Of a stretch of DNA of 64,000 bases, positions 3,379 to 53,702 are shown in pieces. Where the stretch lies: NCBI GenBank assembly GCA_040285855.1, contig JAUFOQ010000017.1:868001-932000 (forward strand). Reading direction: 5' to 3'. How positions within the stretch are numbered: the first letter of the stretch is position 1; each line of letters opens with the position of its first letter. A program made the translations under genes and the position numbers. This DNA comes from Eukaryota sp. GEM-RC1. Lineage: Eukaryota. The notes below the pieces were generated by a model, which saw nothing but the letters and a program-made list of their open reading frames with translations, did not search any database and was not told the DNA's origin.

Positions 3379-3860
3379 CTATATAAAATCAAGTGATTGC
3401 AATCCTGAGGGTCTAAAGAAGTGTTTTTCCAAATTTTGCTTTTTGTCCTTATCACGGATAGAATCGTAAAAGACAACGATTTTTTGATTATGTTCATACA
3501 AATTGTAAACATGTCTGGCATCATTTGGCAGATCAAAGATTATACAAAGATCAGCCCGAACAGAATGGTTAACCGCTAATTGAGTAGTACTGATCAATAA
3601 AACAGGATCAGTCTGTTCATCGAATATTTTCAGACTTGATGTAATCTTTCGTGGTTTTCCACCCTCTAGTGTCACAACTTTAAAAGCAACCTCAGAAACA
3701 AGCCTTGAAAGTTTCCTTACTTTTTCAACTGAATCAGTTGTAATTACAACTTTTGTAACTCAAATATAGTCAACAAATGCTTCACCTTGTTGATTTTTTC
3801 ATCAACACTCCATCTAGATGAAAGAAACTGAAGTCTTTTCGTCGTATCAATGTCGATGGG
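3379..3860 (-). other. Degenerate DEAD-box (eIF4A-like) helicase C-terminal domain at the polyprotein C-terminus
   Basis: EKINKVKHLL...VITTDSVEKVRKL...FKVVTLEGG...PVLLISTTQLA...LCIIFDLPND follows the HELICc layout, but motifs V and VI (ARGxD, HRxGR) are lost. Confidence 0.55.
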
Positions 3861-6615
3861 ATGAGCACTTTCTTCAACAACAGGAATCTCAACTTGTTGA
3901 ACTTGTTGAGTCGATTGAACAGTTAAAGCATGTAGTTCAAGACTTCGTTGTTCGTAAATATTTTTTGAATCACAAGAGCGAACATCATGAACTTCTAATG
4001 GTACACCAGAAATACCAATCACAGATAATGCTGAAAGCATTAACAGTGTTCCATCCTTTTCAGAACAATGAAAGAATTTAAATCATTGCAAAAATCGATT
4101 TTTAACAGTTGACCTGTTAACTCACCACTTGAACAATCAATAATAAATTGAATCTGTTTCTTTGGTAGTTTCAAACCGAAACCAACACAGAACCCAAATT
4201 CCGTGATGTACATTATTGTGTCATAATGCTTAACATACACTGCATCTATAATTCTGTCATCTTTGTGACAGGAGCAAAATTCCCATACAGGTTGTTCACC
4301 AAGCAGCTCCCTTTCATACAAGTCTAACTTTCGGATGGAACAAGTGCCGACAACTAGAACGAAATCGTCATAGCACTTCAAACTTTTGAATTCTTCGTCA
4401 CGATCAATTTCAGACATGTTTAAATCCATTAATGTTGATAATTCTGAACAATTAACACAATTTTTTCATCTTCCTGCACAAAAATGATCAACAACAGAGT
4501 CTTCGTTGCGACAACAAAACAATTTTTGCAGCAGCCATGTCAATACATTGAGAATCAAAACTGTCTCTGGCCAACGGCAACGGTAATACTTGTCGAATAG
4601 TCTTTCGTTTGTCTGTTTTTGGCTTGTATTGAATCATAAATATGGGCCCTTCAAAAGCAATCAGTATGGCCTGGTAAAGCAATTGATGATGAAGTGCAAA
4701 CATAGTCAATTGATTGTCAAATGGTTTACACTGTGGTCTATCATCATCAATACTGCGACTGAACCTTCGGAGTTCTTTATCAATGTTGTAGACTACAAAT
4801 CGTAATGTAACATTCAACACAGGAGTAGGAGTAGGAGTAATAGCAGAAAAAAATTCTGTATGGAGAGTTTCGACAACGTCGTTGTCTATATTCAACGTTC
4901 CAATGGCAATTTTTGATTCAAATGAAAAAACAACATAGAAAGTTCTCATTTCTTCACGTGTAAAATTTAAGATTTGAACATTTTGTCCTAAATATTTAGC
5001 AGTATGAGAAGAGGCAGTACAATACGACTTAGTCCAAGATGACAAATCCAAAGTACTTGTAGCTACTGGTGACTGGGGCAATGCAGTAGTTTCACTAATC
5101 ATGGGTTCAGGAAGGTCAGCGTTTTCGGGGATCATAGGTTCTTCAACCTTGTGTTGGGCTAAGGTAATTTCAGAATTTACTACTTCATTAAGTGTAGTAC
5201 ATGATGATGCACATAAAGGACACGCAGGATCAAAGCACATCAACAGGTCCTGTTCATCATTGACTTGGAAATTTAGTAACTGGAAATGATGTTTCCTTCC
5301 ATTCACATAATCCACGGTAACTGGTGGACTGTTACTTTTCAGTAAGTTGAAATCAAGAATAATAATGTTGTCATACCACGATTTCAACACAGTTATGGGA
5401 ACCTCACCTTGTTCCGTTAAATATACCAAAATACGTAATCGATTGATACATCCAAAGGTGGATTCGATTGGTAACTCATGATAAGGCCAGTAAACATTCC
5501 AGACACGTTTTACCTCAAAAGATCCATGAATATCCAGCTCATTACTGTATGCAATTAATTGTTTGAACCTCGAATCTTGACAATGCATTGGTGTACCAAC
5601 CTTGATAGATGGCTTTGCCATTTCCGAAACCAAATTGATATTGAAGTTCATGAGCCATACGATGAACAAGTATTGAAAAGAAGAAGGAATATGAGACAAG
5701 AATTGTGGAAACTTATCACCAACAGAAATACCATTATGATAACCTAGATCTGTAGGTACAGGGAACAGTGATTTGGCACATTTAACTTCCTTGGACCACT
5801 CATTATCAATACGAGTGTATTGAGTCAAATCACTACAAGGACTTGACATAATGTCGAAAGTTAATTTAATAGAATTTCTTGGTATATGCAAATGTACGAT
5901 ATTACCCCACTGTAACAATTGGTTGTACATGTTCCAAAATTCTGGGCCATTGACAACTTTCAATGCCATTGATAAATTGAATCGTGATTTGATAATGAAT
6001 CTATACCAATCAAGATGGAACGTAAGAGAAAAATTTTTTAATGAATCAAGAGTTCCACGGCACTTGTTGACAAACAGTAGATTTTCAATTTCAGTTGTAT
6101 TCTCTGAATGCAACATAACAACAGTGCTTTCGGTTTCACCTGGAGCTAGATCTGAAGTAATTTTAACTTTTGAACATAATGTCTCTGAAGGAGTACTGTC
6201 ATCATCACTGTCATTAACTTTTAGAGATTTGGAAGATTTGACAATTTTTGTTCATCAAACAATTTCTTTATAAAGCTGTTAAATTTTTTCCATTGACATA
6301 ACCTTCCAACTTCAACCTAACTGAGAATGAATTGTCTACTACAGTTGAATGGAATGACTTATTGGGATAAGAAGCCACAATGGCTTGAAAGAGAGACGTC
6401 GTTGAATTTGGAGATTCAAAAGAGAAGAGAAGATTGTTGATTCATTTCGAAACTTATTGAGTGTAACTTCAGAAGGATTTGATATGAAATTGACAAGTTT
6501 TAGAGCAATGCCTTCCAATGATATTAATTGATTTTTGAGATGAGTATTAGAATCTTCCATATCCACGAAACGTGAAACTAAAGATCTTAGTTCATTTAAA
6601 TATCGCTCTAGTTTT

Positions 6616-8513
6616 TCAAAAAACTAATTTAGATAAATTCTTAAGGGCTTGATCATTAAGGGTTTGATCACGTGTTGGGACAATATCCAGATTTTTAATA
6701 AATTCGCCACATAAAATGTAATGAACCAAGGATAATTTGAAAAACATGTCTGAACGTACAACTTTAGATTCTTCAATAGTAGAGAGTTGTTTGAGTAAAG
6801 GAATCGATTGTGAAAAGGTATACAAATCGTAAAATGACATAAAAGTTGTACGAGAGCAACGAATGAACGACATAGAATTGATACCCGCAAGAAGAATCAA
6901 TCCAGGACACAGGTAATTGTTTGTTAAACAGAAAAATAAAAACTTGAAGTTGTAGAATGAAATATTGGCATTGGTGCAAATCTTTCCGAGATAAGTAAGG
7001 GGAGAATTTAGTTGGTTTTTTGAAAGAACATTAGTGCGGAAAAGAACATCAACCGAAGACATGATGTTCTCGCTAGAAGGAACATCAGGCAGTTGACTGA
7101 TGAAAAATTCAGGGGGATTTGGACGATTACTGATTAAAAATTGAGGATTTTCAGCGATCTGTTTGATTGTTAACAATGGCTCAATCAACGAACAATTTAG
7201 AATTTCTGGTTCGTCGAAATGCAATCTCGAAGTTCCATTCGGATATAAGTTTGTCTGCACAAGACGTAACGAAAGTCCAGGAGAATTTCTTCCAGCACGA
7301 CCAGAGCGCTGGTCCAAAGAAGCAATGGAGCAATGATGAGTGTCGAGAAGGTCATCTGCATCAGTTTGCTTTGACAAACCACAGTCAATGACAAATTTGA
7401 CCCCATCAATAGTCAAGGAAGATTCTGCTATATTGGTAGCAATGACAATTTTAAATTGTTTTTTCGCTGGTTTAGCCACAGCTGCATCTTGTTGGACTGA
7501 ATCCAGACTTGAATACAACGGATACACACCTGGCTTCTCAGAAGAAGCTGGGATGTATAGACCACCAGATCCACTTTTTTCTGACTCTCATACTCATTCT
7601 CAATAATATTACTGAGAGTTGTAATTTCTGGACTTCCAGGAAGAAACACGAGCAAAGTAAATCCTGTACATTCTGGTTCAAACTGAAAAAGCTTCTGAGA
7701 CAGGGAGTAATAACAGAGACATAGTCGGGCTAACGCTCTGAAATTGATACTTTTATATGAAAGAGGATTACAGTGTTGAGTGAAATAGTCGTAGTATGAG
7801 TTCACATTGAAGACAAAATAAGTGTAAATATCAATAAAATGATCGTTGAAAACCTGTTGAAGTGTAGGTTCAAATATCGGAGTTATCACAAGTTTTGATA
7901 TTAAGGGACTATAATGAAATTCATTTTGACGAACAAAATTCACATCAAGGACAATCAGTGGATTGGTTCTTCCAGCTGCATGGATAGTATAGGAGGGTTC
8001 GGTATCTAAATAATTTCCTTGTGTAAGGTAATTAAAACAAGGATTAGGTTTGTCCATAGTTGCCGAACAGATTACCACTCTCAATTTTGAATCAGTTTGG
8101 GAAATTATTCTCATTTGTGCTAATAAAATGTCAATGTCACATTTTCTTTCATGAACTTCATCCACCATGATAGTTGCAAATCGAGACAGATTGCTATTAT
8201 TTGTCAGAAATTTAGAAGTGAAGGCAGCGGTTTGAACTTCGATAAATCTTGGTGAATGTACTGGAATGTTCGTATTCTTGTTGCCTGTTCGGTATCCAGA
8301 CAGAGGAAAATCACTATGACATAAATCATTGATAAAATCGGAGAGTTTTGTGGCTGGTAGAACTCTAGGTTGACACACAATGATTGGTTTCAAAGTAACC
8401 ATAACCACAACAACACCAGTTAAAACAGATTTCCCGGAACCTGTTTGACCAGAAACAATAAACGGAATAATATTGTTGTCTTTGACATGATTTTGACCAA
8501 CAACACGAAACAA
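6616..8513 (-). other. DEAH/RHA-family RNA helicase domain (frameshifted near 7530-7590)
   Basis: GQTGSGKS, QPRVLPA, DEVHER, SAT, LVFLPG, ATNIAESSLTIDGVKFVIDCG, QRSGRAGR. Confidence 0.92.
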
Positions 8514-9672
8514 TTGTTAAAAAGTGTCTTTTCCTTCATTAACAAATGCAATACGGCAGTTACGTGCTTTTGAAATCAACTGAAAGCAAGAAAACACCAA
8601 GTGGAAGTAGGCGTCATTACTGTCAACTGTATTATTCCACTGTTCAGTTAGTGTCAAAATTTGAAGAATTTGTGTTAGTAAATCACTTTCGCGGACATAA
8701 GATTTCAAATGTGCTAATTTAGAGCATACTTTAGGAAAATCAATTGATGTAAATGTACACGTTGGTTCCTCTGGTGAAGTCACAGTGCTTGGGAAATTGT
8801 AAACATAGCGGGGAGGTCGTCTCCATTGAAGATAATGATCTAACAACATCTTGTAATCACTATGATTTGACGCCAACCATGACAATGAGACTAAGTATTC
8901 CATTGCCTGGAAACAGAAAGACATTAAAGAGAGATCTTTGTTTTCTTTTTTTTGTTCATAATGGTAATGGGCACAAAATGACAGTTGGAACATGAGCATA
9001 CTCATAGTTTCAATTTTGTTTTCGAAAAAATCTTGATATACAGTAAACTGATGTCGGTAAACTTCTTTCCGTTGTACAACTTGTTTAGTTTCAGGGTCTT
9101 TAATTTCGACAATGCGGCTTTCTTCATCTGTATCCACAAAAGTATAGTGCTCGAGAAAATGACAAAAGTTAAAAAAATCTTGAAAGTAATTGAGAAGTGT
9201 AGGACGAATCTCTGATATTATTAAAATCATCCCGCATAATACTAAGAGAAGTTTGATTATATAGATCATCAAATCCGTCATCATTTAAAGGATCGTCTGT
9301 AGGATCGTCAGTATGTTCAAAATCAGAATCTTTGACATCAACATCAGGTATTTTGGGGGCTTCTTTTTCAATTAATTCAATAACATGAGCAATATCAAAG
9401 ATTAACATTTTGAGTTTATAAGTAGCTTTTGACTTTGCAAACTTTTCAATCACTTTTTGGTTTTCTTTGTACATTTCCAAAGTAAATTGATTATTCGTAC
9501 GATCATACACTTGAAGGTTGAGTTTTTTCTCCTCCACAACAAATTGCAGATGAAGCATTGTTAATAAAATGTCCAGCATAACCTCAGGACGTACCAAAAC
9601 TTTAGGGTTGATATTTTGATACAAGGATGTGATACTTAATGAAACATCACTAAGTCTAAAAGTTTGGAAGGG

Positions 9673-9714
9673 ACATTCATTATAACTGTGACCAGGAAGA
9701 AGGCAGAAGAGACA
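9673..9714 (-). other. CCHC zinc knuckle
   Basis: CLFCLLPGHSYNEC = C-x2-C-x4-H-x4-C. Confidence 0.8.
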
Positions 9715-10419
9715 TGGAGCAATAAAAAGGCAAAACGATTCACGAAAAGAAGGTTGTTTTTGAGGACAATGGGGAGGCATCTCATATTTGAATCCAAGAG
9801 GCATAATCGGTAAACTCACAGTAGATTCTCGATTAGGGTCACACAATTGACACCAATATTTATGGAGGGATTCCAACGCTCCATCATAACTGAGCAAGTA
9901 ATGATTAGCATCTTGTTGACATTCAATCAACTCCGATTCATAGTGTTTGGCCATGATGTAATTTTCAATTCTCCAATTACTTGGCGTGTCACCAGGTTTG
10001 CAACACTCTTGTATAATTTGGGCCAGGAACGAGCGTCGTGATTCATTGTCTGGATTGGGAATGACATCTGGAGCGAGATCAGTTAAGTTTTCGGATTCAT
10101 CTATAAAAACATGATTCATACATGAACAAACTTGGAAACCAGGTGTTCTTCCAGATCTTAGCACTGGATGGGCAAAAGTTTCATGTGGAATACGGCAGTA
10201 ACGATGCAATATGCCCATGTGGTATTTAGTTCTTTGATTATGTTTCTTTTGTTTTAGCTGAGTTTCTTCTGTTAGAGTTTCTTCTGTTGGCGGTTCTTCT
10301 GTTGGCAGTTCTTGTGTTGGCAATTCTTCTGGTAGCGTTTCTGGCAGAGATGGAGGAGGCGATGGTGACACAGAAGTTCTTCTGGGTCTCTTTACTTCTG
10401 GGGATGGTAAACGATCATG

Positions 10420-10470
10420 GGGACCTGGATTCTGCTCAACGTCTCCATCGATAGAGAGATCACGTTTCCA
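10420..10470 (-). other. 2A-like ribosomal skipping (StopGo) peptide
   Basis: WKRDLSIDGDVEQNPG|P matches the D(V/I)ExNPG|P consensus exactly, with a typical upstream WxRDL. Confidence 0.88.
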
Positions 10471-10471
10471 T

Positions 10472-11401
10472 GATGTGGACGAGAGGATAGAGCACAGAAT
10501 AAGCGGAGACGACATCTTAGGACGAGGAGGGAAGCACGTATCCACACATTTCTTCAACCCACCATCCATATCCCGTGACCGTGCTATGGAAACAGTGTTT
10601 GGATGATGAGATGAAGCAATGGCGGATGTGGACGAGAGGATAGAGCACAGAATAAGCGGAGACGACATCTTAGGACGAGGAGGGAAGCACGTATCCACAC
10701 ATTTCTTCAACCCACCATCCATATCCCGTGACCGTGCTATGGAAACAGTGTTTGGATGATGAGATGAAGCAATGGCGGATGTGGACGAGAGGATAGAGCA
10801 CAGAATAAGCAGAGACGACATCTTAGGACGAGGAGGGAAGCACGTATCCACACATTTCTTCAACCCACCATCCATATCCCGTGACCGTGCTATGGAAACA
10901 GTGTTTGGATGATGAGATGAAGCAATGGCGGATGTGGACGAGAGGATAGATCACAGAATAAGCGGAGACGACATCTTAGGACGAGGAGGGAAGCACGTAT
11001 CCACACATTTCTTCAACCCACTATCCATATCCCGTGACCGTGCTATGGAAACAGTGTTTGGATGATGAGATGAAGCAATGGCGGATGTGGACGAGAGGAT
11101 AGAGCACAGAATAAGCGGAGACGACATCTTAGGACGAGGAGGGAAGCACGTATCCACACATTTCTTCAACCCACCATCCATATCCCGTGACCGTGCTATG
11201 GAAACAGTGTTTGGATGATGAGATGAAGCAATGGCGGATGTGGACGAGAGGATAGAGCACAGAATAAGCGGAGACGACATCTTAGGACGAGGAGGGAAGC
11301 ACCTATCCACACATTTCTTCAACCCACCATCCATATCCCGTGACCGTGCTATGGAAACAGTGTTTGGATGATGAGATGAAGCAATGGCGGATGTGGACGA
11401 G
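10472..11401. repeat. Six near-identical 153-bp (51-aa) tandem repeats
   Basis: Unit start GATGTGGACGAG at 10472, 10625, 10778, 10931, 11084, 11237 and a partial at 11390; only a few substitutions. Confidence 0.97.
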
Positions 11402-11511
11402 GCGAGGGGTGTTAGCAGTATAATAGAAGACATTGGAGTGGGAAAATTATGGAGCTGTAAACAACTAAATTCCATTTGTCTTTATTAAAAACATTTAAAT
11501 AAACACAAATA

Positions 11512-11941
11512 CTAGAATTCAATATCATTAAAGCAACAATCATTGCCATTAAAACTCACATCAGCTTTTTCTTCATAAAAAACACTGAGAGCTAATAGAG
11601 CTTTTGAAATCATGATAGGAATTGTTTTAAATATTGTAAAAACAATACGATTCAACCAAAATTTGAAATCAAATTTCTTGTTCATTCATTTTTGACCACT
11701 TTCTCAAAATCAGAGAGAAAACAAAGAGCATCTCTACCAAGTCGACCATAAATTGAAATTGCAAAGGACATAATTTGTACTCAACATGTCTAATATGTTT
11801 GAGAGCAGTCAGTGGTTCCTCATATTTGTTTCTCTTGTATTGTTCTGAAGAATTCAGTGGAGAAACTTCATTTTTAGCATCCTTGAATGCACTTTTTTTG
11901 CAAACATCCACAGTAATCACATCAAAAACATCTGTAAACAA
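11512..11941 (-). CDS. Small hypothetical protein (frameshifted)
   Basis: ORF 11669-11941 plus a coding-like tail ...ALLALSVFYEEKADVSFNGNDCCFNDIEF* ending at 11512. Confidence 0.3.
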
Positions 11942-12060
11942 CTATACTGTACAGATAGAACAAGGAATTCTCATGACTTCACAAATACATTTACAAGGAT
12001 CGTTTTGTGTACACTTTTATTTTCTCTTAGATACAAGTAGAACAATTTATTACTGTGCGT

Positions 12061-13768
12061 TTATTCTAAATATTGTAAAGAATGATGATGATAAAGTAAA
12101 ACATAGCCATTTAAAGAAATCTCAGTTAATACTGTCTGTTTGTCTACACCTTTCTTGCAATCACTATTGGTATCATGTAACCACCAAGAACCTTCTTTTT
12201 CCTTTGCATATGTCACACAGTGACCGTCAGCAAGGGAATCGTAATGACAGATCGCAGACAGCAGTCTGTATGTGTATTTTTCTTCAACACTACTTTTGGT
12301 CTTGGTTGACACTTTGGCGGTTCAGGTTCGACTGGTACTTCTTTCCCAATCACTACCTCTAACAAAATGCTGACTCCCACACTTTCTTTCATTTTCATTA
12401 GAAATGTCAAAGACAGACAATTCTTCTGATGTTGGATAATGAGACAATGTGTAAATGTCCTTAAGTGGCAGTTGTGAGTTGATTTCATTGGTAGGGGAAA
12501 ACTCAATCGATTCTGAACCCAATTGTGCTTCAGAAGACAGGAATAGATAGAGTGATAGATTTGAAGAAATAGTAACTGGTTGAGGATGTCCAGTCAGTCT
12601 AATGATAAGAGCTTTTGGAAGAGAAGCAAAAGTTTCAGTAATTTCTGATTTTTGTTCAGGACAAGTAGCACAAATTATTTCTTTTCGAAAAGGTAGATGA
12701 GCTTGCAACAATGATTCGAGATCGGTTGGTCTAGAAGGATACCGCCTTTGGATACTTTCCTTGTTAATTTCCAAGGCGAAGTGAATTTTAGATGTCGGAT
12801 CAGTCCCACACCAAGAACATTTTGTTGTTGTTTTAATACAGAAACAAAATGCATTAACAGCACAAGAATGCTTTAATTTTTGAGTTATCAACAATTGATC
12901 TAAATCTTGCTGAAGTGATGATTTGACATCTAACTGAGTCTGAACTTTTTTTGGTGATGGTTTCTCATCTAAATCATATCCATAATATTGGAAGTCTGTA
13001 GTATCAGTTTCTTCTGATTCAGACTGTGGTTCAAATTTTTGACAAAGAGTGTAATTCATCATTTGATGAAGATGGCAAGGTGGTGCGGAATTCCTTGTCA
13101 AGTGTTTTTAAAAGTTTGGCAAGAAAATTGAAAGGATCGTGTTGACCCGCCGCAAACACAGGATAAATGTCAGCGATTTGCGCACGAACACCTTCAATAT
13201 CTTTCGTATAAAAACAATTGAAGAGAGGAGTAGCAGAAGTATCAAAATCTAGTTCTTTGAAATGATTTACATTGAGTTCGAAGAAACGTTCAATGTGACG
13301 TATAATAAAATGGATAACTGAATAGACATAACAACAATCAGATGAAGTAGAAATTGAAGGAGTAGTAGTTTTAACAGGAATGGCAAGAGCCTCGTTAACT
13401 GTTTTAGTCAAACTGGAAAGAGAAGAAGGGGATACAATCAGGTTATGAGATGAGAGGGTGGTTTTTACGATGAAAGATATCACGTCGCTAATACACTGTG
13501 TATCTTCAAGGGGAGTGATTGCACGAAGATTAGAGGACGATGCTAAGCTGAAAAGGAACTTTGTTTGTGCAACGTCTGATGTTACAAGAACGAGATTGAA
13601 ATGGTATTGAATATGTCCATTATACACTACGACAATGAAGAAGTCGCCCGCAGTGTCTTGGACGATGACAATTTCAACATCTGTAACTTCCGCAGGAATG
13701 TCATTTACGAAGTCTAGTTGCATCTGTTGTTTGGGAAAACGTTGGCGGACACGGAATGATGTTGACAT
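12061..13768 (-). CDS. Ubiquitin-specific protease (USP, peptidase C19), frameshifted into four pieces
   Basis: Cys box CCYVYSVIHF, GQHDPFNFL, fingers CSWC/CATC, LPKALIIRL, His box YRLLSAICHYDSLADGHCVTY, WWLHD. Confidence 0.82.
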
Positions 13769-13940
13769 GTTTGTACAGAGAGGAAAATTTATGTCCTAGT
13801 CTATTATTACAACAAAGATTCCATTTTTGACTTTCAATCAATACAATAGGGTGGGTTTATTCATTCCGTGATGAATTTGTCATTCACGAGGATTAATGTT
13901 TTACTATAACTAACTAATACAGGATTAATAAAGGAACCAG

Positions 13941-15493
13941 TGAAGTAGAAATTGAAGGAGTAGTAGTTTTAACAGGAATGGCAAGAGCCTCGTTAACTGT
14001 TTTAGTCAAACTGGAAAGAGAAGAAGGGTTAGGCAAAATCAGGTCTTGACACTTAATTCGTGGAAGTCGCCATTGATTATTCGTACGATCATACACTTGA
14101 AGGTTGAGTTTTTGAGAAAGTTCCCACACTAAGAATTTAAGTGTCGGCTGCCACAAACCTAAGAAATCTTACCAACATAAACGTGTTCAAAAATTTGTTC
14201 ACTAATCAGTCTGTTGCTGGGTTGAGTACAAACAAAGGATGGCCCAGAACAATGAGCCTTAACTTTATTAATTATCTTGTGACTGGTTCTTTTCATGATG
14301 AGAACTACAGATTTACTTGAAGATACTAAAACAATTTTTTAGTAACGAAAAAGTTTAAATCAAAAACATTCTGTATGAAGAGTTTCGACAACGTCGTTGT
14401 CTATATTCAACGTTCCAATGGCAAGTTTTTGATTCATGTGAAAATCTGGATCACCATATTGGAGAGCAAATCTGTGGACCAAGTTTTGTTCACTTCGTTC
14501 TTTTCTTGAATACTGGGTAAGGCGTCTACGTCTAAAAAATTTCTCTTCATAGAAACAAGCCTTGAAAGTTTTTGGAACTGAATCAGTTGTAATTAAAACT
14601 TTTTATAACTCAAATACAACTGCACTTGTTGATAAACAGTAGATTTTCAACATCCACTGCCGTAGCTTTGATGATGCAGCCTCCCTATCCTTATCTAACT
14701 CAACTCGAGACTGACTCCATTGCAGGGTTTCGGGCTCAGTTGAGTTTAGATAGTCCCAGTATGAAAGGCCTTATTACTTTATGCAAAATTCTGTCTATTA
14801 ACAGGACAGTGATTGATCTGGATATCTCCCCCAACTTAATTGATATTGAAAGTCACATTTTCATTTATGTTTTTCACCAACGAATTTTGTTCCCAAAGAA
14901 GCGGGGGTGGCAGGATTTGAAGAGGTGATGTATATGACATAAAGACCATTTACATCTGTTGATCTACTCTGCTTCTGAATTGTACAGAGGAACGAAGATA
15001 TACCACCAAGCTATTGCTCAAGATGTTCCCATTGTGACTTTGAGAAGAAGAGCAGAGAGAAATGAAACAGAGGGAACGAAGAAAGTTATACAGTATGGCC
15101 GATGCACGATTACTGATTAAAAATTGAGGATTTTCAGCGATCTGTTTGATTGTTAACAATGGCTCAATCACGATGGAACGAAGAAAGTTGTTATACAGTA
15201 TGGCCAAGACAAATCACAAGACAACCATACTTCTCAGAGGACAATCTTCAAGTGGTTCAATGCAACGTTAAGCGGATCTACGAAACATACAATGCAAGAG
15301 GCATTCAGCAAGAATCAGTCAGAAATCCAGTGTTTTCAGCAGAGGAGATAACTGAAGGAGCATCATCACAGAAGAAGTGGATAAAGAGAAAACCACGGAA
15401 CAACACATTCCTTCAACCCACCATCCAAATCCCGTGACCGTGCAATGGAAACAGTATCTGGATGGCGGAATTGAGAAATGGCGGATGTGGACG
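13941..15493. repeat. Patchwork of short direct copies of neighbouring genes
   Basis: 13941-14028=13343-13430; 14072-14113=9486-9527; 14368-14436~4853-4920; 14551-14616~3694-3766; 14622-14650~6060-6088; 15106-15170=7123-7187; 15401-15493~part of the 153-bp repeat. Confidence 0.92.
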
Positions 15494-15933
15494 CAAAGCA
15501 AAGCAATGAGTGCAACCACGATACACCAGATGACAACCCAACTCATCTTGCCCACTTGTCGAGTGCAGGAGACAAATTGACAAGAAGAGCGGAATTGCCA
15601 TCTATGTAAAGAGGTCACTTCTCATAGATATACGTGGCAGCAAGCACATATCGTGACCAAAACTTACTTTTGGCATCATCACAATGTCTATAGTTAGAAA
15701 GATGGAGGATCATACGCATGTCAAGAGAGAAGAAAAGTGAAATTGCAGTATTCATTTTTGGAGTCTTGTCTTGTTTGTCTACAGATAGCAGACATCTTTT
15801 CTGTCTTCGGATATCTCCTACACTTCAAATACAACATTTTTGTACTTACTTACTTGACATCATTCATTAATTAATACATCAACAATGTTATTTTCAATGC
15901 TCTTGTGTATGACAACATTGACAATGCATTGAA

Positions 15934-17320
15934 CTAGAACGTATATGTTGATTTCGTGTTAACAAGGAAGAGACTTGAAACAAAAGAAGAACGGGATGCT
16001 TTATTGATATCTAAACAAAGAAAACTACAATAATGATCTATAAAAACAAATTTAAATCGCATATGGTGTATGAGGCTAGCAGTATCACGAGTAGTATCAC
16101 CAGCAATTCGAATAGCTCTTTCAATTACTGGGGTGGTGGTTTCACGAAGGGCGGAAGCAACTGCACTAAAGATGAGTTTTAAATCGCATATGGTGTATGA
16201 GGCTAGCAGTATCACGAGTAGTATCACCAGCAATTCGAATAGCTCTTTCAATTACTGGGGTTCACGAAGGGCGGAAGCAACTGCACTAAAGATGAGTTCA
16301 AGTTCCTTCTCGTCAAGTGAATGCTTAGAGTTTGCTAAAAGAGTAGTCACTGCCTCATGACCAGTCTTGACAACGCTGTCAACGTCAACAATCTTCTTAG
16401 GTTGAGGTTCAGTTATCTAGAATTAGATCAGTGGATTCATGTATGAAAGAAAAGTGAACCTAGACCTTAGACTTCACTTCACATCTTCGGAGTCCTATAC
16501 AAGACCATGCACACTTATCTCATTCAATAAACAACATCTTCTTTATTTTGTTCTACTTGCCAGTTGTTTCTGCAAAACAGGTCCTACATTTAACTTCTTT
16601 ATCTCTAACTTCTTTCTCTTATCGCTGCCTGAGATAGGCTTTTCCTTTCCACACTGATGTCCCAAAGTCTTGGAAACAAGTGATCCTAGGGAGGATTGAA
16701 TTTCATCGTATTTAGTAGGAGTGGAAGGAGCGGATTCGGTGGGAGAGTTACGAGAGGACTTTGTGAGAGGTTCTGGAGTTGTGGCTTCTTTGCTCACAAC
16801 TTTAGCTTCTTTAAGGTGCTTGTTCTTTTCTTAACAATATGAGTTCTTTCATGAATAACATTAGGAGCAATTGAATAAAACTCAGAAAGATCTTCGTTTT
16901 CTTCAGCATTCATACCATACACTTTCTTAAAACGTGAAGAAATGTCTGGTACTTTTGCGCCTTGGGAAGCTAAATATTGAGTTCTAGAATTAATAAAGTG
17001 AACAATATTCTCAAAAAGTCTTCCTTAGACTGTACCAAGTCTGAGAGGAATTCATCATTGTTGGTACTTATAGAAAGTCCATCGGTTGAATTGTCACGAG
17101 GTCGTGAAATTAGAATATAATCCCCATTGGGACCGAGCTGAACACTTTTACCATCCACCTTTGTCGATGTATAACTAAAGACGTTATAGACATCCTGGTG
17201 CTTGTTCATATTCTTTCTTCGGAAAGCGTTAGAGCGTCGTTTCTTGTTATAATTGACAGACATAGACGTTGCATCATCTGAAGACTGAAATGAGAGTGAA
17301 TAAAGACATACAACTGACAT
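15934..17320 (-). pseudogene. Fragmented hypothetical ORF(s)
   Basis: Run of short minus-strand ORFs (16970-17320, 16543-16797, 15934-16251); no recognisable motif. Confidence 0.3.
16051..16298. repeat. Tandem duplication of ~125 bp
   Basis: TTTAAATCGCATATGG...CTAAAGATGAGTT occurs twice; the second copy lacks 7 bp. Confidence 0.93.
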
Positions 17321-27226: not shown

Positions 27227-29787
27227 CCCCGGTTGGAAGGAGGGAATCCTAACTCATCACCAGAATCATTGGGAAGACTTGTTTCACTACTTTGAGATTG
27301 GTTCTTTTTAGATTTCTTTTTTTCCTTCTTTGGTTTCTTTTCTTTCTTTGGCTTAGGTGGATTCTCTACAGGATTAGTTGTATCATCAGCCTTGATTTTA
27401 GCTTTTCTTTCACGTTTGATATTTTCCTTTTTAGTTTCGGTATATTTGGTAAAGGGTACTGATAGCAAATCTTCTCGAAAAGTACGATCCTTAGCTAGTA
27501 AACGTTCCATGGCAAAGACTTGGTCCAAAGTAGAAAATAGAAGTGAAATTCTGACTAGAGGTTTAGATTTGCGGGGTAATACCGAAGCAGTCCTACACAT
27601 TTTAAATCTGTCGAATAAAGCTATAGTTCCTGAAAAAATTGTAGTAAAGAACTCTGGTTCAACAGAAAAAATCACAGGAAGTGAAGTAACTGGAGGTATA
27701 GCTGACGATTTTAGTACTACTAATCCAAGACAATCACTTTGATAGATGACGTTATCATGATTAATTGAAGAATCAGAGGGGACAACTACGATGTCTTTAG
27801 GATCGTGATCAATACTGGTTTGCATTTGAACTAACTCAAGAACGTCAGAAGATAGTTCACAAGGTTTCATAGCAAAAGATTTAGACCGTAGATTAGAATC
27901 ATCATTTACATTTTTGAACCAGTAATGAAGAATAAAAGTCAAACTAACTACAGGCTCCAATGAAGAAAACACTGGAAATTGATGAAATATTGGAACAAGA
28001 TGAGATAGGAACATAGAAACCGAATCTTTTGAACGTCGATTAGTAGAAATAACACGGTCAAAAACTAAACGTGGAACTAAAGTAGATCGATCAACAACAT
28101 TGGTAAAGTTCTGTAAAAGAAGAAATCAGCCACGTCTTGAGGAGTACAAGAAAGTCCGACGAAGTCTTTAGAAATGACGTTATTGGAAAGTAAATCTAAT
28201 AATAGAGGCGGAAGAATATGATCAATTCCAACTTCAAAATTTAAAATAACAGTTTCAGATGCCAAAATAATTTGATCAATTACTTTAACGACAGACCTCA
28301 CAAAGACTGTAACTCTGGGATTTGTTGGACAAATTGAGTTGAATAGAGTCTGAATTGCAGCTTCAGAATTACTTTGAGAAGCAGTAATGCTAAAGTAACT
28401 AGCACTAGGAAGATCTGAACAAACAGGGTAACGGTTTGGATTATTAGCGAATAGATGGATCAATTTAATCTCAATTGCCTGATCTAAAACACCAGAAATA
28501 ACCTTACCAGAGAGCATTTCTTTGGTTACTGTAAGTTGTTCAACACTAACTAATGATGAAGTGTCAATAGCAAGAGCCAGGACATTATAGGCAAGTGAAG
28601 CAAAATATTTTGAATATTTCAGAGGAGTAAGCACGGCAATGAACGACTTTCGAACCTTCTTTTCGGATAACAAAGGAAGTAGAATTCTAACACACAAGTT
28701 TACGATAGAAGAAGCTGTAAAGTCACGTTTTTCAAAGAAGAAGGAGAAATCCTGTGATGGTTGTAGACTTTGAACATAACTATAGTTTGAAGGATGAGAG
28801 AGAATATTAAAAAGAACAGAAACAAAAGAACGTACAGATTGAGAAAGTTGTTCCACTGTGCTAGACCCACTGAGGTCATCAGATTCACTCCCCCTTAAGT
28901 TCAGGACTATCAGAACAGACAGGTTTTAACGTGCTTAACCATGAGGTAGAGCGAGCAGAACGTTTATGGTGAGACACAAGTTTAGTGGTTCGGAAAGGAT
29001 GTTCGGGATCTTCAGTAGGTGCTGATTTGGAGTAAACACAAGCATCGTTCGTGGGATCATCAGTTATCCCATGGGATATCTTTAGATAATAGTTGAAGGC
29101 GATCCAGAAAGCGTCAAGAGCAGCATATTCGATCTGTTTCTCGCTAAGGATTTCCTCACTCCAATTACTCATCGTTATGGATTTACTTCTTTCACACAGT
29201 AATGTGTAGCCATGAGCAGCAAACGTTGAGAGTGGATGGGAAGGGATGCCTAAATCAGCCTGTCCCTTTCCTACTTTTCTGGCATAAATGGTTCCAACTT
29301 TATGGAAATACGGTTCCACATCATAAGGTGAGACTACATCAACGCCCCAGAGTTCTTTCATTCGTAGGATGTCTTGTTCTGGATTTTTGAAGACCTTAAT
29401 GATGTTGGAATCGATCAGTATATGTGTGATATCTTGATGTAAGGTAACAATACCGTGGATCTGAATGACCATGGAAATTGATGGAGTTCCAAGTTGGAGT
29501 ACATCCAATGTATTGTGTCTCCATTCTGAATCTACAGAAATGAAGGGATGATCAGAAGGAATGCTTTGTTTGAGAAGGGAAATATAATCGGGAATGAGTG
29601 AGATATCATCCCGCATTGAAAACAGATAAACAGGGATGGGTTCAAGCTCTTGGACAAATCGAACATGACTGTGAGCTTTCACTTCTTCTTGGGGAGCAAT
29701 ACTCAGGGAGGAGTATTGATCAAGATCGTTCTCAGAGTCAGAAGAGTCGAATATAAGCTTGAATAAGTCAATCGTTGTTCATACCAT
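27064..29787 (-). CDS. DEDDy 3'-5' exonuclease (WRN-exo/EXD2-like) family, copy 1; 27-nt intron 29758-29784; frameshifted
   Basis: ISVDSEW (ExoI), KNPEQD (ExoII), SNWS...QIEYAALDA (ExoIII); ATG|gtatga...aag|CTTATATTC. Confidence 0.85.
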
Positions 29788-36417: not shown

Positions 36418-38849
36418 TCAAACAGAATTACTGGGAAGGATTTGCTTTGCTCTGTTCCCCCGTTTGTTTTTGGCTTTCTTTTTATCTTTGGGTTTCTTAG
36501 CTTTAACATTGTTTACTTCATTTTTGAGTTTTTTTGAGCTTGACGTCAGAAGATTCATGGCAGAAGAGGCCGAGACCTTGCAAAAATTCACTGATAGCAA
36601 ATCGGTTCTGAAAGTAAGATCTTTAACAACAAGTCGTTCCATAGCAAACACTTGATCTAAAGTTTTGAAGAAAAATTTAAGTGTGATGGCAGTTTCAGTG
36701 TGCTGGATCGTAAGATCTTCACATATTTGAAATCTTTGGAATAAATTCAAACTCTTCACAAGCTCTTGATTCCAAAATTCTTTCTCCACAGAGAAATACA
36801 CTGGGAGGGATTTTTTTAGTGTTTTAGCTGAAGTTTTTAATACTACTAATCCAAGACAATCACTTTGATAGATGACGTCATCATAATTAATTGAAGAGTC
36901 AGAGGGGACAACTGCAATCTCTTTTGTACCAGGATCAATGCTGTTTTGTTGTTGAACTAACTGAAGAACATCAGGAGTATGTTCAACAAAATTCAAAACA
37001 CAAGAAGTAGATGGTAAACCAGAATCATTATTTTTGAAAAAGTAATGAAGAATAAAAGTCAAGCTAACAACAGGTTCCAGTAAAGAAAACACTGGGAATC
37101 GATGAAATTCTGAAGCAATAAGTGATGAAAGTTTAGCCCAGTTTGCTGTTCTTTCATTGAATTCTGAACTAACTAAGTCTAAAACTAAACGTGGAACTAA
37201 AGTAGATCGATCAACAACATTGGTAAAGTTCTGTAAAAGAAGAAATCAGCCACGTCTTGAGGAGTACAAGAAAGTCCGATGAAGTCTTTAGAAATGACGT
37301 TATTGGAAAGTAAATTCTGTAAAAGAGGCGGAAGAATATGATCCATTCCAACTTCAAAATTTAAAATAACAGTACCAGATGCCAAAATAAGTTGATCAAT
37401 TACTTTGACTACAGATCTTGCAAAAACTGTAACTCTAGGTTTTTTTGGAGAAATAGATTTTAATAGAGATTCAATTGCAGCTTCGGAATTGTTTGAAGAA
37501 GTGGTAATACTTAAGTAACTAGCATTAGGAAGATCTGAACAAACAGGGTAAACTTTAGGTATTTTACCCCAAATGAGACCCAATTTTGTCTCAATTGCCT
37601 GATCTAAGACACCAGAAATAACCTCACCAGAGAGCATTTCTTTGGTTACTGTAAGTTGCTCAACACTAACTAATGATGAAGAATCAACAACAAGAGCCAG
37701 AAGATTATGAGCAACTGAAAGAATATACAATGGATACTTCAGTGGGGTAAGCACGGCAATGAACGATTTCCAAATCATCTTGTCGGATAACAGCGAAAGT
37801 AGAATTCTAACACACAAGTTTACGATAGAAGTAGCTGTAAAGTCATGTTTTTCAAAGAAGAAAGAGAAATCTTGTGATGGTTGTAAATTTTGAACATAAC
37901 TAGAGTTTAAAGGATGAGAGAGAATATTGAGAAGAACAGAAGAAAAAGAACGTACAGATTTAGACAGTGATTTTTGAGTTGATTTCGTCTTCTCATCAAA
38001 GTTCTTTTCCAGAACATTTGGAGCATCATGAATATCACAACAGAAGGGCTTTAGAGTACCTAACCATTGAGGAGATCGAGTAGACAAAAGTTCAGCAGTC
38101 GGGAAAGGATGTTCAGGAATTTGACTATGAGACGAATTGTAGATGAAAACACAAGCATCGTTAGTGGGATCCTCAGTAATCCTGTTGGATATCTTGAGAT
38201 AATAGTTGAATGCGATCCAGAAAGCGTCAAGAGCAGCATATTCGATCTGTTTCTCACTAAGGATTTCGGCACTCCAATTACTCATCGTAATCTTTTTCCC
38301 CTTTGTACAGAGCAATGTGTAGCCATGAGCAGCAAACGTTGAGAGTGGATGAGAAGGAGCGCCTAATTCAGCCTTTCCCTTCCCTACTTTACTGGCATAA
38401 ACCTTTCCAATATCATGAAAGTAACGCTCCACATCATAAACAGACACAACAGCAATTCTCCATAATTTCTTGATTCGCTTGATGTCTTCGGATTGTGCCT
38501 TAAACACCTTAATGACATTGGGATTAGTCAATAAATCACTGATATCTTGATGGAGAGCAGTAATTCCATGAATCTGAATGACCATGGAAATTGATGGAGT
38601 TCCAAGTTGGAGTACATCCAATGTATTGTGTCTCCATTCTGAATCTACAGAAATGAAGGGATGATCAGAAGGAATGCTTTGTTTGAGAAGTGAAATGTAA
38701 TCGGGTATGAGTGAGACGTCATCCCGCATTGAAAACAGATAAACAGGGATGGGTTCAAGCTCTTGGACGAATCGAACATGACTGTGAGCTTTCACTTCTT
38801 CTTGGGGAGCTATACTTAGGGAGGAGTGTTGAGCAAGATCGTTCTCAGA
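36418..38849 (-). CDS. DEDDy exonuclease family, copy 2 (fused in frame behind copy 3)
   Basis: VDSEW, KAQSED, YAALDA; no ATG or intron of its own; homology begins at SENDLAQ inside ORF 37197-39494. Confidence 0.82.
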
Positions 38850-41307
38850 TCCGGAACAGTTTTTCGGAAGTGGTTTGTTTTTGACCTTCTTTTTATCTTT
38901 AAGTTTCTTAGCTTTAACATTGTTTACTTCATTTTTGTCTTTTTTTCTACTTGACGTCATCAGATTCATGGCAGAAGATGGCGAAACCTTACAAAAATTC
39001 AATGATAGCAAATCTGTTCTGAAAGTAAGGGCCTTAACAACTAGTCGTTCCATGGCAAACACTTGGTCTAAAGTTTTGAAGAAAAATTTAATTGTGATGG
39101 CAGTTTGAGTGCGATGGATAGTAAGATTTTCACACATTTTAAATCTTTGGAATAAATTCAAGTTCTTCACAAGCTCTTGATTCCAGAATTCTTTCTCCAC
39201 AGAGACATACACTGGGAGGGATTTTTTTGGAGATTTAGCTGAACATCTTACAACTACTAATCCAAGACAATCACTTTGATAGATGAAGTCATCATGATTA
39301 ATTGAAGAATTATAGGGGACAACTGCAATCCCTTTTGTACCAGGATCAACATCGTTTTGTTGTTGAACTAACTGAAGAACATCATCAGATGGTTGGTTAA
39401 GAACTTTTGAAGCATACGAAGTAGACCGTAGATCAGAATCACCATTTTTGAAACAGTAATGAAGTATGAAAGTTAACCTAAGAATAGGTTCCAAGGGAGA
39501 AAACAGTAGAAATTGATGAAATTGTGAGATTAGAAGTGACGTATACTTAGACCAGTTTTGGCTGAATTCTGAATTAACTAAATCTAAAACTGAACGTGGA
39601 ACTAAAGTAGATCGATCAACAACATTGGCAAAGTTCTGTAAAAGAAGAAATCAGCCACGTCTTGAGGAGTACAAGAAAGTCCAACGAAGTCTTTAGAAAT
39701 GACGTTATTGCAAAGTAAATCTAATAATAGAGGCGGAAGAATATGATCAATTCCAACTTCAAAATTTAAAATAACAGTATCAGATACCAAAATAATTTGA
39801 TCAATTACTTTGACGACAGACCTCGCAAAGACTGTAACTCTAGGATTTGTTGGACAAATTGAGTTTAATAGGATCTGCATTGCAGCTTCAGAATTACTTT
39901 GAGAAGCAATAATGCTAAAGTAACTAGCACTAGGAAGATCTGAACAAACAGGGTAACGGTTTGGATTATTAGCGAATAGATGGATCAATTTAATCTCAAT
40001 TGCCTGATCTAAAACACCAGAAATAACCTCACCAGACAGCATTTCCTTGGTTACTGTTAGTTGTTCAACACTAACCAATGATGAAGAGTCAGTAGCAAAA
40101 GCCAGAAGATTATAGGCGACTGAAAGTACATACAATGGATACTTCTGAGGAAACTTCATGGCAGTAAACGAGATCAATACATCCTGATTAGATAACAAAG
40201 GAAGTAGAATTCTAACACACAAGTTTACGATAGAAGTAGCTGTTAAGTCACGTTTTTCAAAGAAGAAAGAGAAATCGTCTGATGGTTGTAGAGTTTGAAC
40301 ATAACTAGAGTTTAAAGGATGAGAGAGAATATTGAAAAGAACAGAAGCAAAAGAACGTACAGATTGAGAAAGTTCTTCTGTTAGTTGAGAAGAGGAGAGC
40401 TGACCGAAGTTCTTTGCAAGTACTTGCCAGGCATAATGAATATCACAACAGAAGGGCTTTAAAGTACCTAACCATGGGGCAGATCGAGTAGACAAAAGTT
40501 CAGTGGTTCGGAAAGGATGTTCTGGAACTTGAGTTGGTGATGGGTTGGAGAAGAAAACACAAGCATCGTTCGCGGGATCATCAGTTATCCCTAGGGATAT
40601 CTTGAGATAATAGTTGAAGGCGATCCAGAAAGCGTCAAGAGCAGCATATTCGATCTGTTTTTCACTCAGGATTTCGGCGCTCCAATTACTCATCGTAATC
40701 TTTTTCCCCTTTGTACAGAGCAATGTGTAGCCATGAGCAGCAAACGTTGAGAGTGGATGGGAAGGAGCGCCTAATTCAGCCTTTCCCTTGCCTACTTTAC
40801 TGGCATAAACCTTTCCAATATCATGAAAGTAAGGCTCCACATCATAAACAGACACCACATCAACTCCCCAGAATTTCTTGATTCGCTTGATGTCTTCGGA
40901 TTTCGCTTTAAACACCTTGACGACATTGGGATTAGTCAATAAATCACTGATATCTTGATGGAGAGCAGTAATTCCATGAATCTGAATCACCATGGAAATT
41001 GAGGGAGTTCCGAGCTGTAGTACATCCAATGTATTGTGTCTCCACTCTGAATCTACAGAAATGAAGGGATGATCAGGTGGTACGCTTTGTTTGAGAAGGG
41101 CAATGTAATCGGGTATGAGTGAGACATCATCTCGCATTGAAAACAGATAAACAGGGATGGGTTCAAGCTCTTGAACGAATCGAACGTGACTGTGAGCTTT
41201 CACTTCTTCTTGGGGAGCTATACTTAGGGAGGAGTATTGAGCAAGATCGTTTTCAGAGTCAGAAGAGTCGAATATAAGCTGAAATGAGTCAGATAACGTC
41301 AAACCAT
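38850..41307 (-). CDS. DEDDy exonuclease family, copy 3; 26-nt intron 41279-41304
   Basis: Same Exo motifs; ATG|gtttga...ctgac...cag|CTTATATTC. Confidence 0.85.
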
Positions 41308-41603
41308 TGATGGGGAGCGAAAAATTTGGAAATTTTTCACTTCTTTGATTTCCAGGAATATTAATCAAATGTTTTTGTCTATAGGATAATTGCAAATCTC
41401 TTTTTTATGTGATTTTGTATGTCACAATTAATCATTGTACTACTGTATAATTAATTCTCCGTAGTGAGACCAGTGAATATTACTGACAGCACTATAAAGT
41501 CACAGTTTCAAAAGCTGTTGATACCAACCTTGTTGTTTGAGATTGATCTTTAATTAATGTGGAATTTCTTCAGTACCTGTTTGATGACAACTGTGACTGA
41601 ATT

Positions 41604-41652: not shown

Positions 41653-41698
41653 TAAATCTTAGAATTTTACATCTTCATAACTGTGACTTATCCTTTCC

Positions 41699-43978: not shown

Positions 43979-44055
43979 ATTTTTTGTTTTGTTTATTATT
44001 GTGTTTTTTTGTTAAATATTTCCAGTTTTGTTTCTATAAACACATTGGACTGTCC

Positions 44056-47313: not shown

Positions 47314-47973
47314 CTGATGATGCTCAACTTTCTCATCATTTTCCACTTCCAAGGAGGATATTTCTAGGAGTTGTTATTAAACATACCTGACATAGTTTTG
47401 ACTGACTCATATGATTAACACTGTCAACCAAATTCCTCTAGGGCTCCAACCTGCTTTTTTCTTAGTCCCTATTATCATTGATACATTGAGTTAGATTATG
47501 TTGTTCTACTTTATTCATGAGTTTGATTTCTTGAAACTCACTATGAATATTATGTCAACCACATAGTAGACAATGGAGCTTGACATTTGAAAGTCAGTTA
47601 TTGAACCCAGAAAAATTGCATCAACCAACATCACTTCAAACAGACTTCGAATGTTGGTGTTCATCATTCTACTCTTTCAACGTATTCAACTACAATGTAC
47701 TTCTTTATTGTTGGGTGATTTGATACCAAATAAGAGCTACTAAACAAACAGTTTACCATATACTAGGGCAACAACAGCTTTAGATTCTCAGTCTGTTGAT
47801 CCGAATGTACCCTTTTATCGATATAACCCCTGCTTTTCACAGTTTCTTGTATGTTCCAGACCTATTAAACATCAACTCTACTGAACAGTTTGAGCAGATT
47901 TGGAGATAGAACGTCTAAACAAAATCCCAATCATTTATGGAAAAACAAACCAATAACTACATAACATACATTT

Positions 47974-50253: not shown

Positions 50254-50758
50254 GGGACAGGAACAGTAATGAGGATGGGAAATTCTGAGACTGAACTCTC
50301 TTGTAAATTAGACTAACAATTGTAATTAAGAACAGTTGATCTACTCTACTGTACTGTACTAATATTCGAAACTGGTTCATCTAGATGTATTAATGTATTT
50401 ATGGTCAATAACTATCGTGTGTAGTATTTTGTTTACTCAATGACATCAAAAAGTACTGTAAAAATCCAATTGTACTGATTACTGCAATCTCAAACAATAA
50501 GACAATATTGAACAGTTTCATAGGTTGTTTCGATGAAGTGCTGCGAATATTCTGAGTTAGTCGCATTGCGGAGAATTTGTATATGAGCACATTGATCAAA
50601 TCGGTTTTGTAGAACAAATTTGTGAAATGCCTTATTCATAAAAAACGCAATTTACAATGGTCATATGGACAACAAGAGTCTGACTGACAATGACTGAATG
50701 TAATTGCAGCTAAATCTAAGAAGAGAAAATTTTAGAAATTTCTCATTCCACGATTGTA

Positions 50759-53126: not shown

Positions 53127-53599
53127 TGTTAGTTTCAAGATGAAGCAGTGGATTGGACTCAAGTCTTGTTAGATTCAGTTTAGAGTACATCTAGAACTGT
53201 TATTTTTTAGTATTTTCCAGTCAATACCACAGTGGACGTGTTCGAACTAGATTTTCTTGTTTTATAGAAGTGGCGTAAGAGATAAGGCGGTGTAAATACA
53301 CTTATGTATATTTCAGGAATAAATAATGTAAATTATCGAATAATATCTCTCCTAAAATTGTAGTACAATTTCATGAACACAGAATACAAAGAAAGAACAA
53401 TAAACAACGCCTAACTACAAATAAAGAACATTATCAATCTTAACAAATGAGATACTAATACCTATTCATCCCAAATTCATGTCCCAATGAAAGAGACGGT
53501 TCAAAATCGAATCAAAATACCAAAAAAAGAGCTTAACCTTCAGCTCCAATAACTTTTTTTTGAATGTAGTCTTTATTTTTATGGAACAAAAACACTAAG

Positions 53600-53702
53600 A
53601 TAAACACAAATACTAGAACTCAATATCATTAAAGCAACAATCATTGCCATTAAAACTCACATCAGCTTTTCTTCATAAAAAACACTGAGAGCCAATAGAG
53701 CT
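53600..53702. repeat. ~103-bp direct copy of 11499-11602
   Basis: ATAAACACAAATACTAGAA...CTGAGAGC(T/C)AATAGAGCT, about 3 differences. Confidence 0.93.

Follow-up and report, generated by a model that had tools for sequence, protein, structure and literature searches.

In Eukaryota sp. GEM-RC1, a 1.5-kb mosaic of gene fragments (13941..15503, 1563 nt) lies within a 2166-nt spacer that runs from the stop of an upstream open reading frame (ORF) at 15934 to the start of a USP-type protease gene at 13768. The spacer was analysed as part of a 64,000-nt stretch of contig JAUFOQ010000017.1 (assembly GCA_040285855.1, positions 868,001 to 932,000), which is referred to here as the window and whose numbering is used throughout. 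The patchwork is real and non-random, and we give about an even chance to the explanation that it consists of at least nine gene fragments written by error-prone, template-switching synthesis during the repair of a break or fork, in a process like microhomology-mediated break-induced replication or fork stalling and template switching (MMBIR/FoSTeS). The mosaic is probably a scar without function and not a working small-RNA archive.

Copied pieces of the adjacent gene block

The region 13801-15700 was compared with the window by BLASTN, which was repeated at word sizes of 11 and 7, and in all three settings seven matches to the USP gene and to a neighbouring polyprotein gene were found where a preliminary description of this DNA had placed them. 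All are in the plus/plus orientation, so that the orientation of the source is kept in seven of seven cases, as had been claimed, and they extend over 29-137 nt with identities of 82-100% and E values of 1e-5 to 1e-45. The two leftmost pieces are exact: 88 nt at 13941..14028 repeat exon 1 of the USP/UCH gene (13343-13430, 598 nt away), and 42 nt at 14072..14113 repeat positions 9486-9527 of the polyprotein gene ('KLNLQVYDRTNNQ'; the 9.5k piece). They are followed by an 83-nt copy of 4847-4928 at 14362..14444 with 94% identity (the 4.9k piece), by a diverged copy of 3694-3766 at 14551..14616 (the 3.7k piece), which is 82-89% identical to its source, has several small deletions including one of 8 nt and may extend to about 14633, and by an adjoining 29-nt copy of 6060-6088 at 14622..14650 with one mismatch (96.6%; the 6.0k piece). 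Further to the right, 68 nt at 15103..15170 reproduce the helicase region 7120-7187 ('IEPLLTIKQIAENPQFLISNR') with 98.5% identity, 65 nt of them exactly, and this 7.1k piece is bracketed by the two copies of a direct repeat representing a duplicated target (31 nt at 15070..15100 and 34 nt at 15172..15205, the right copy with one mismatch and a 3-nt insertion). The last piece, at 15367..15503, is a diverged copy (82-87%) of one unit of the N-terminal repeats of the polyprotein (the repeat piece); its donor array is made up of the 153-bp tandem units at 10472-11401, and the alignment needs a 15-nt gap.

Together these element-derived pieces account for 518 of the 1563 nt, and the donors of all seven are still intact in the window. 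Their edges are sharp: similarity in excess of that of random window sequence was present in only one of the 14 flanks, the right flank of the 13941-14028 piece, where it is a weak degenerate continuation (p = 0.025). A degenerate run-on of the copies into their flanks was accordingly dropped. Splice sites bordering the pieces were looked for by eye in the sequence, and none was seen. Word-7 BLASTN, tblastx, and tblastn of 58 family proteins against the mosaic revealed no further donors within the window.

The placement of the pieces and their donors is far from haphazard. Direct orientation in seven of seven pieces has a two-sided p of 0.016, and the location of all seven donors inside a 10.4-kb minus-strand gene block has a p of 3.6e-6 if donors are uniform over the rest of the window. 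All the donors in the window are on the left side of the mosaic, at distances of 598 nt to 10.3 kb, and the 48 kb on its right contribute none. The identities, which run from exact to clearly diverged as the preliminary description had it, are heterogeneous (chi-square p = 1.7e-6), with 1 difference in 198 nt for the three freshest pieces (USP, 9.5k and 7.1k) against 26 in 162 for the repeat piece taken together with the core of the 3.7k piece. From left to right the values are 100, 100, 94, about 85, 96.6, 98.5 and about 82%, without a clean age gradient. Along the minus strand the donors are used in the order 2, 4, 5, 7, 6, 3, 1, which leads down the gene and then back; it is unexplained, and such 'there and back' orders make up 126 of the 5040 permutations (p = 0.025). 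Gene families and tandem arrays aside, the window contains few other short matches, namely one dispersed 116-nt duplicate, four palindromes with lengths of 24-108 nt, and, in the region 26-47 kb, four diverged matches (29-146 nt) that do not involve the gene block, and the patchwork is therefore exceptional for the window.

The adjacent genes had been named as the sources of the copies, and the range of identity had been taken as a sign of successive acquisitions. All seven pieces do match the gene block and the heterogeneity is real, but the block belongs to a multi-copy family, the diverged pieces need not derive from the neighbour, and part of the divergence may reflect other donors or an ancestral state. 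The repeat piece, which translates to '...RHPDTVSIARSRDLDGGLK...', is 15 nt shorter than the 153-bp unit of the window, and its R, D and L residues together with its short unit match the 47-aa repeats of the paralog P0022 and not the 51-aa repeats of the window gene. The 4.9k piece reads 'TECF', as does the paralog P0052, where the window gene and five other paralog models that cover the site (six of seven in all) read 'TEFF'. To judge from these variants, the two pieces appear to derive from other members of the family or from the window copy in an earlier state, and with paralog-type variants in two pieces, identity to the neighbour is therefore not a clean clock. The repeat piece also appears to be either old or copied with many errors, because it has only about 65% protein identity even to the best paralog unit, that of P0022, and because its 21 substitutions without indels are spread over codon positions 1, 2 and 3 in the ratio 8:6:7; in the remaining diverged pieces the ungapped differences are too few for the codon-position test.

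The filler stretches between the element-derived pieces measure 43, 248, 106, about 419 and 161 nt. The preliminary description had called them unmatched and similar in size to the copies; their lack of a donor in the window holds, their similarity in size does not, and at least about 340 nt of this filler has relatives outside the window. These were recognized when the plus frame 14593-15351, read through with its four internal stops and its terminal stop as X, was scored against 1.84 billion representative proteins, which gave 40 proteins at E<=1e-3, 18 at <=1e-10 and a best value of 3.1e-28. The homology is that of two short fragments and not of a whole gene. One of them, at 14651..14891 on the plus strand, was delimited by protein search and local alignment and is one unit of a family of 60-70-aa repeats ('...SPSLEGLITLFEILSINKSVIDLDISPHLIDIE...'), two members of which also carry Pfam LRR_6. 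Over 41 aa it is 73% identical to P0090; a frameshift near 14868 follows, past which the match goes on in a different frame with 7 of 8 aa shared. The other, at 14938..15039 on the plus strand, is a 34-aa BRCT fragment that is 70.6% identical to residues 34-67 of P0108 and matches the first BRCT domain of that protein (by alignment and by Pfam BRCT on P0108), with similarity ending sharply on both sides. Their plus-strand coding sense is the reverse of that of the element-derived pieces, and neither family has another match anywhere in the window. Nine fragments from at least four gene families thus assign 861 of the 1563 nt, and the interval 14551-15205 is nearly filled by the 3.7k and 6.0k pieces, the repeat-family unit, 46 nt, the BRCT fragment, 30 nt, and the duplicated target with the 7.1k piece.

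The first part of the repeat-family fragment (14651-14760) shares 62-78% identity with the 42-aa unit of the tandem repeat at the start of P0081, a protein of 256 aa in which three such repeats are followed by a second 2A motif, DGDIESNPGP; its tail is presumably Ulp1-like, judging by its motif, and Pfam found nothing in it. Homology links the repeat unit of P0081 to the mosaic fragment as well as to the opening half of the 60-70-aa repeats, and tandem repeats followed by 2A may be a recurring design in which leaders are built of captured fragments.

Of the 15 ATG ORFs in 13800-15950, 10 (37-92 aa) were looked up exactly, and none corresponded to an annotated protein; Pfam gave nothing credible on 10 mosaic ORFs, and a length-limited homologue search with the plus-frame read-through (139-443 aa) was blank. 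The stop-poor plus frame 14593-15351 was dropped as the sign of a gene, since five or fewer stops also occur in 17 of 396 non-coding control windows.

The element copy around the mosaic

The DNA of the window is eukaryotic with few introns, and three 'hypothetical proteins' of GEM-RC1 match the helicase part of the minus-strand polyprotein gene with 99%, 96% and 65% identity. Exact look-up located the window's own ORFs in a protein collection, in which clusters are formed by paralogs at >=90% identity, and the genes flanking the mosaic proved to be dispersed families of 8-20 near-identical copies each on many megabase contigs. The clusters have 14 + 1 + 5 members for the polyprotein/helicase, 11 members at >=90% identity for the USP ORF, 8 for the minus-strand ORF 17320-15937 and 5 each for the PIF1-like gene and the hAT/BED ORF, while 9 members, one of them an unrelated 39-aa sequence, are listed for ORF 4491-6116. 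Since every flanking gene belongs to a dispersed multi-copy family, the mosaic is a spacer inside one copy of a repeat element, and this copy is decaying.

The USP/UCH gene (12064..13768, minus strand), which is the donor of the first piece, was correctly labelled in the preliminary description, as the full-length paralog P0048 matches Pfam UCH with an E value of 2.7e-8. The polyprotein gene block (3382..11481, minus strand), donor of the other six pieces, was defined by ORF, Pfam and paralog comparison and encodes six 51-aa repeats, the 2A motif DGDVEQNPGP, a CCHC knuckle, a DEAH-like helicase and a long tail. In the window copy the block is interrupted by two stops, TGA at 10951 and TAA at 8517, where paralogs read through, and by frame changes, and the T-run at 9172 carries one extra T. 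The right bound of the spacer is a multi-copy basic ORF (15937..17320, minus strand; 8-member cluster) that has c. 300 aa in its paralogs and is also broken in the window copy; near its 3' end there is a 128-nt tandem duplication (16051-16298, 94.5% between copies) that the paralog proteins do not have. Two GT..AG intervals, 7548-7585 (38 nt) and 13024-13159 (136 nt, in the USP gene), are skipped in paralog gene models. Removal of the interval 13024-13159 would lose a stretch that resembles the Q-x-D box of the UCH fold, and the intron call there may be a workaround for a frame change.

No terminal repeats bounding the gene block were found by an inverted-repeat search of its flanks, and the spacer 13780-15750 has only short and poor inverted repeats, with no termini or Helitron ends. 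Neither a transposase nor a reverse transcriptase was found in the minus-strand gene block 3382-17320, and the PIF1-like gene near the mosaic lacks a Rep domain. The element, which encodes a USP-type protease and a repeat-2A-helicase polyprotein, is so far undescribed. A literature search for GEM-RC1 by name found no paper on the organism, neither the USP ORF nor the helicase had a relative in metagenome and viral collections, where a 24-nt filler string likewise had no exact match, and a search of the ESM Atlas with the 542-aa ORF gave no usable match. A length-limited homologue search with the N-terminal part of the polyprotein (326-1038 aa) was likewise blank, but cluster members of that size exist, so this blank must be a miss through crowding of candidates.

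Origin of the mosaic

Repair by template switching would begin with a break or collapsed fork in the spacer, from which a 3' end would have paired again and again with exposed single strands, each time copying 30-250 nt before it came off. Most of the copying would have used a single exposed strand of the gene block next door, at distances of up to about 10 kb; that strand could be a resected overhang, a lagging-strand template or the strand of an R-loop, and other family copies or unrelated loci would sometimes have served instead. If synthesis left its template and re-entered it behind the point of departure, this would explain why the 7.1k piece sits between the 31- and 34-nt copies of its target, the re-annealing producing the 31-nt flanking duplication. 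At least two such episodes, or a single one with diverged donors, would be needed. The central fragments abut or nearly do so and therefore form a chain rather than separate insertions into native spacer. Signs of decay are present in the fragments themselves (the frameshift in the repeat-family unit and the 8:6:7 codon-position spread of the repeat piece), and the same element copy has other slippage-type lesions, the 128-nt tandem duplication and the extra T in the T-run. Template switching or templated repair had been among the proposals of the preliminary description, and it is supported by the sharp, short copies, the intact donors confined to one side and one strand, the 31/34-nt duplication and the abutting fragments.

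The mosaic resembles MMBIR/FoSTeS events of the chromoanasynthesis type in that many short segments from several loci have been copied, not moved, and strung together, and in the flanking duplication at a template re-entry. The segments consist of head-to-tail copies of sequence that survives elsewhere, with seven donors in the window and, for two more fragments, relatives outside it. In human cells, where the process is abbreviated MM-BIR, one report describes a molecule that had taken up 16 insertions, 55-3916 bp long and drawn from 9 chromosomes, with a median junction overlap of 3 bp, and near and far donors with segments of tens to hundreds of bases are again a point of likeness (PMC13065848). 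The mixture of cis, paralog-type and unrelated donors matches such events. The present case differs in being fixed in a protist genome inside a repeat element, in drawing mostly on one strand of one adjacent gene block, and in having pieces of varied apparent age and a single readable junction with microhomology at chance level.

With polymerase-theta scars the mosaic would share reiterated priming, extension and dissociation and error-prone synthesis, and in Caenorhabditis elegans, POLQ scars with several inserts took their template from one flank in 16 of 17 cases (PMC5068794), as did the mosaic, all seven window donors lying to its left. Classical POLQ inserts have an average length of about 10 bp; in about 85% priming took place no more than 10 bp from the break, and only about 3% map far away (PMC5068794). 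The pieces of the mosaic measure 29-250 nt and their donors lie 598 nt to 10.3 kb off or outside the window, and a classical polymerase-theta scar was rejected on insert size and donor distance against those figures (PMC5068794).

Several observations weigh against repair by template switching. The only readable junction between two donors shares CTTGTTGA, which is no more than expected by chance (p = 0.54) and was dropped as proof of a microhomology switch; a short AACGAA/ACGA overlap of the 7.1k piece with the duplicated target was noted by eye. Similarity past the ends of the pieces is non-significant at 13 of 14 flanks, about 640 of the 1563 nt are without a known donor, and pieces of 29-250 nt with donors 0.6-10 kb off are much larger and farther than classical POLQ inserts. 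The range from 0 to 18% divergence would require unseen diverged donors if there was a single event, and a hotspot, the cause of which is missing, if there were several. The repeat piece diverges from its neighbour far beyond the level between copies (>=90% aa identity), so that part of the mosaic may have been inherited with the element and not made in the window copy. The structure of the mosaic is, in addition, known from the assembly alone.

In another reading the mosaic would be a heritable part of the element, a store of captured gene fragments like those of Pack-MULEs or Helitrons, made in an ancestor and copied along with the element, with only the fresh pieces as later additions or conversions; we regard it as a possible but distinctly minor candidate. 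Pack-MULEs, Helitrons and the 'filler DNA' of excision sites are known to place short fragments of several genes inside a multi-copy element, and transposon fragment capture is thought to arise through template switching in gap repair. The spacer is flanked by two genes that are multi-copy at >=90% identity, the repeat piece (18% off its neighbour and 65% in amino acids to the best paralog unit) would predate the recent spread of the family, and a homologous fragment forms the N-terminal tandem repeat of the 2A-bearing P0081, so that such sequence travels with these elements. Three of the pieces are nevertheless 98.5-100% identical to the window copy itself, no terminal inverted repeats, Helitron ends or other termini surround the spacer or the gene block, the fragments come mainly from the carrier element itself, and no annotated protein with paralogs was met among the 10 ATG ORFs (37-92 aa) of the spacer that were looked up. 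The pieces could also be the wreckage of an older element copy of the same orientation, shredded by deletions and insertions and later partly overwritten from the neighbour, as all of them keep the element's orientation and the pieces from 14551 rightwards on the plus strand (3.7k, 6.0k, 7.1k and the repeat unit) keep the order that they have in the gene; divergence is clear in the 3.7k and repeat pieces (82-89%), while the 6.0k piece is 1 nt off in 29 and the 7.1k piece fresh (98.5%). This is improbable given that the left half is in reverse order without inversion (13.4k, 9.5k, 4.9k, 3.7k), that no residual similarity is left between or beside the pieces even at word 7 or at the protein level, and that the 100% pieces would require conversion tracts of 42-88 nt without diverged homology around them. 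A patch made of RNA or cDNA, in which a reverse transcriptase jumped among transcripts of the element and of other genes and the mosaic cDNA was used to mend a break, seems to us an outside candidate. It would account for the fact that the seven element-derived pieces are all exonic and of one sense and that two carry variants of other family copies, as from a transcript pool, and RNA-derived patches at breaks in human cells, short and taken from transcribed sequence elsewhere, have been described as templated sequence insertions (TSIP class 2; PMC5110952). Those are usually single patches, whereas here the repeat-family and BRCT fragments stand in opposite coding polarity within the same chain; Pfam detected no reverse transcriptase in the 11 gene-block ORFs and 6 paralog proteins scanned, no splicing sign was seen, reading through the sequence, in which no dedicated poly(A) search was made, brought no such tract to light, and no piece crosses 7548-7585 or 13024-13159, where intron loss would show.

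A spacer-like memory had been the other proposal of the preliminary description, and a working archive, whose plus-strand transcript would be antisense to the USP and polyprotein mRNAs and exert small-RNA control over the family, is highly improbable in our judgement. All seven family pieces would be antisense in such a transcript, exact runs of 88, 42 and 65 nt suffice as sources of small RNAs, and the window has a five-copy family of 3'-5' exonuclease genes, the link of which to RNA silencing is conjecture. piRNA clusters such as flamenco, and CRISPR arrays, likewise gather fragments of mobile families at one place and in one orientation. The mosaic differs from them in consisting of 30-140-nt bits of its neighbour instead of whole insertions and in having no repeats between the pieces, and there is neither a repeat-spacer order nor, once the unrelated repeat-family and BRCT fragments are counted, a uniform antisense polarity. 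The window scan returned no Rfam family or tRNA, self-comparison showed no inverted copy able to form a hairpin with the mosaic, and the lack of a clean age gradient, the even spread of differences over codon positions in the repeat piece and the frameshift of the repeat-family fragment also speak against an archive, so that this proposal found no support. A broader version, in which the spacer is a transposon-borne archive of bits of its own family and of host genes, held in a transcribed spacer and either read as antisense or small RNA that tunes the family or serving as raw material for the variable N-terminal repeat leaders placed before a 2A peptide, is very unlikely; the idea of leaders rests on the homology of 14651-14760 to the tandem repeat that precedes the 2A motif of P0081. 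An assembly artefact, for instance through long reads that are chimeric or repeats that were wrongly joined where repeats abound, would fit the many near-identical copies of the family and the frame breaks in the window copy at homopolymer lengths, which are typical of long-read consensus. Chimeras should hardly differ from their sources and should seldom persist in a consensus, while the repeat piece is 21 substitutions without indels from its donor, paralog-type variants are present and the mosaic includes diverged fragments of unrelated genes, and we consider an artefact most unlikely.

Other features of the window and significance

The dispersed duplicate mentioned above is a 116-nt sequence directly upstream of the polyprotein start (11487-11602) that recurs 42 kb away at 53588-53702 with 95% identity and in the same orientation, where its neighbours are an exonuclease gene and a TRM5-like gene. 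Candidate explanations are a promoter module, a small mobile sequence and one more stray fragment. A hAT-like element at 1334-2736 has 25-nt inverted ends (1334-1358 and 2712-2736, 88%) and GCCGGCTCA subterminal motifs and encloses BED-finger and hAT-dimerisation ORFs that are themselves multi-copy. The exonuclease family has five members, which are diverged copies (80-88%) of a gene 2.3 kb long that encodes a 3'-5' exonuclease domain (Pfam DNA_pol_A_exo1) and occur in both orientations within 27458-29770, 36462-41351, 50712-53084 and 58764-60687, and the same region contains an inverted pair of Sec23 genes (41657-44008 and 47941-50290, 97.75%).

The mosaic is most probably a repair or replication scar of a known general kind, unusually legible, inside a decaying copy of an undescribed multi-copy element. 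Templated-insertion chains are known mostly from human tumours, cells in crisis and laboratory models. If template-switching repair is the right explanation, the mosaic would be a germline-fixed, multi-donor chain of this type in a little-known unclassified eukaryote, and a natural-genome example with its donors next door, from which the rules of template choice (strand, distance, cis versus trans) would be readable. The analysis also flags the many-copy element itself, with its USP-type protease and repeat-2A-helicase polyprotein. Should the mosaic be transcribed into small RNAs, it would represent a new way for an element to record itself.

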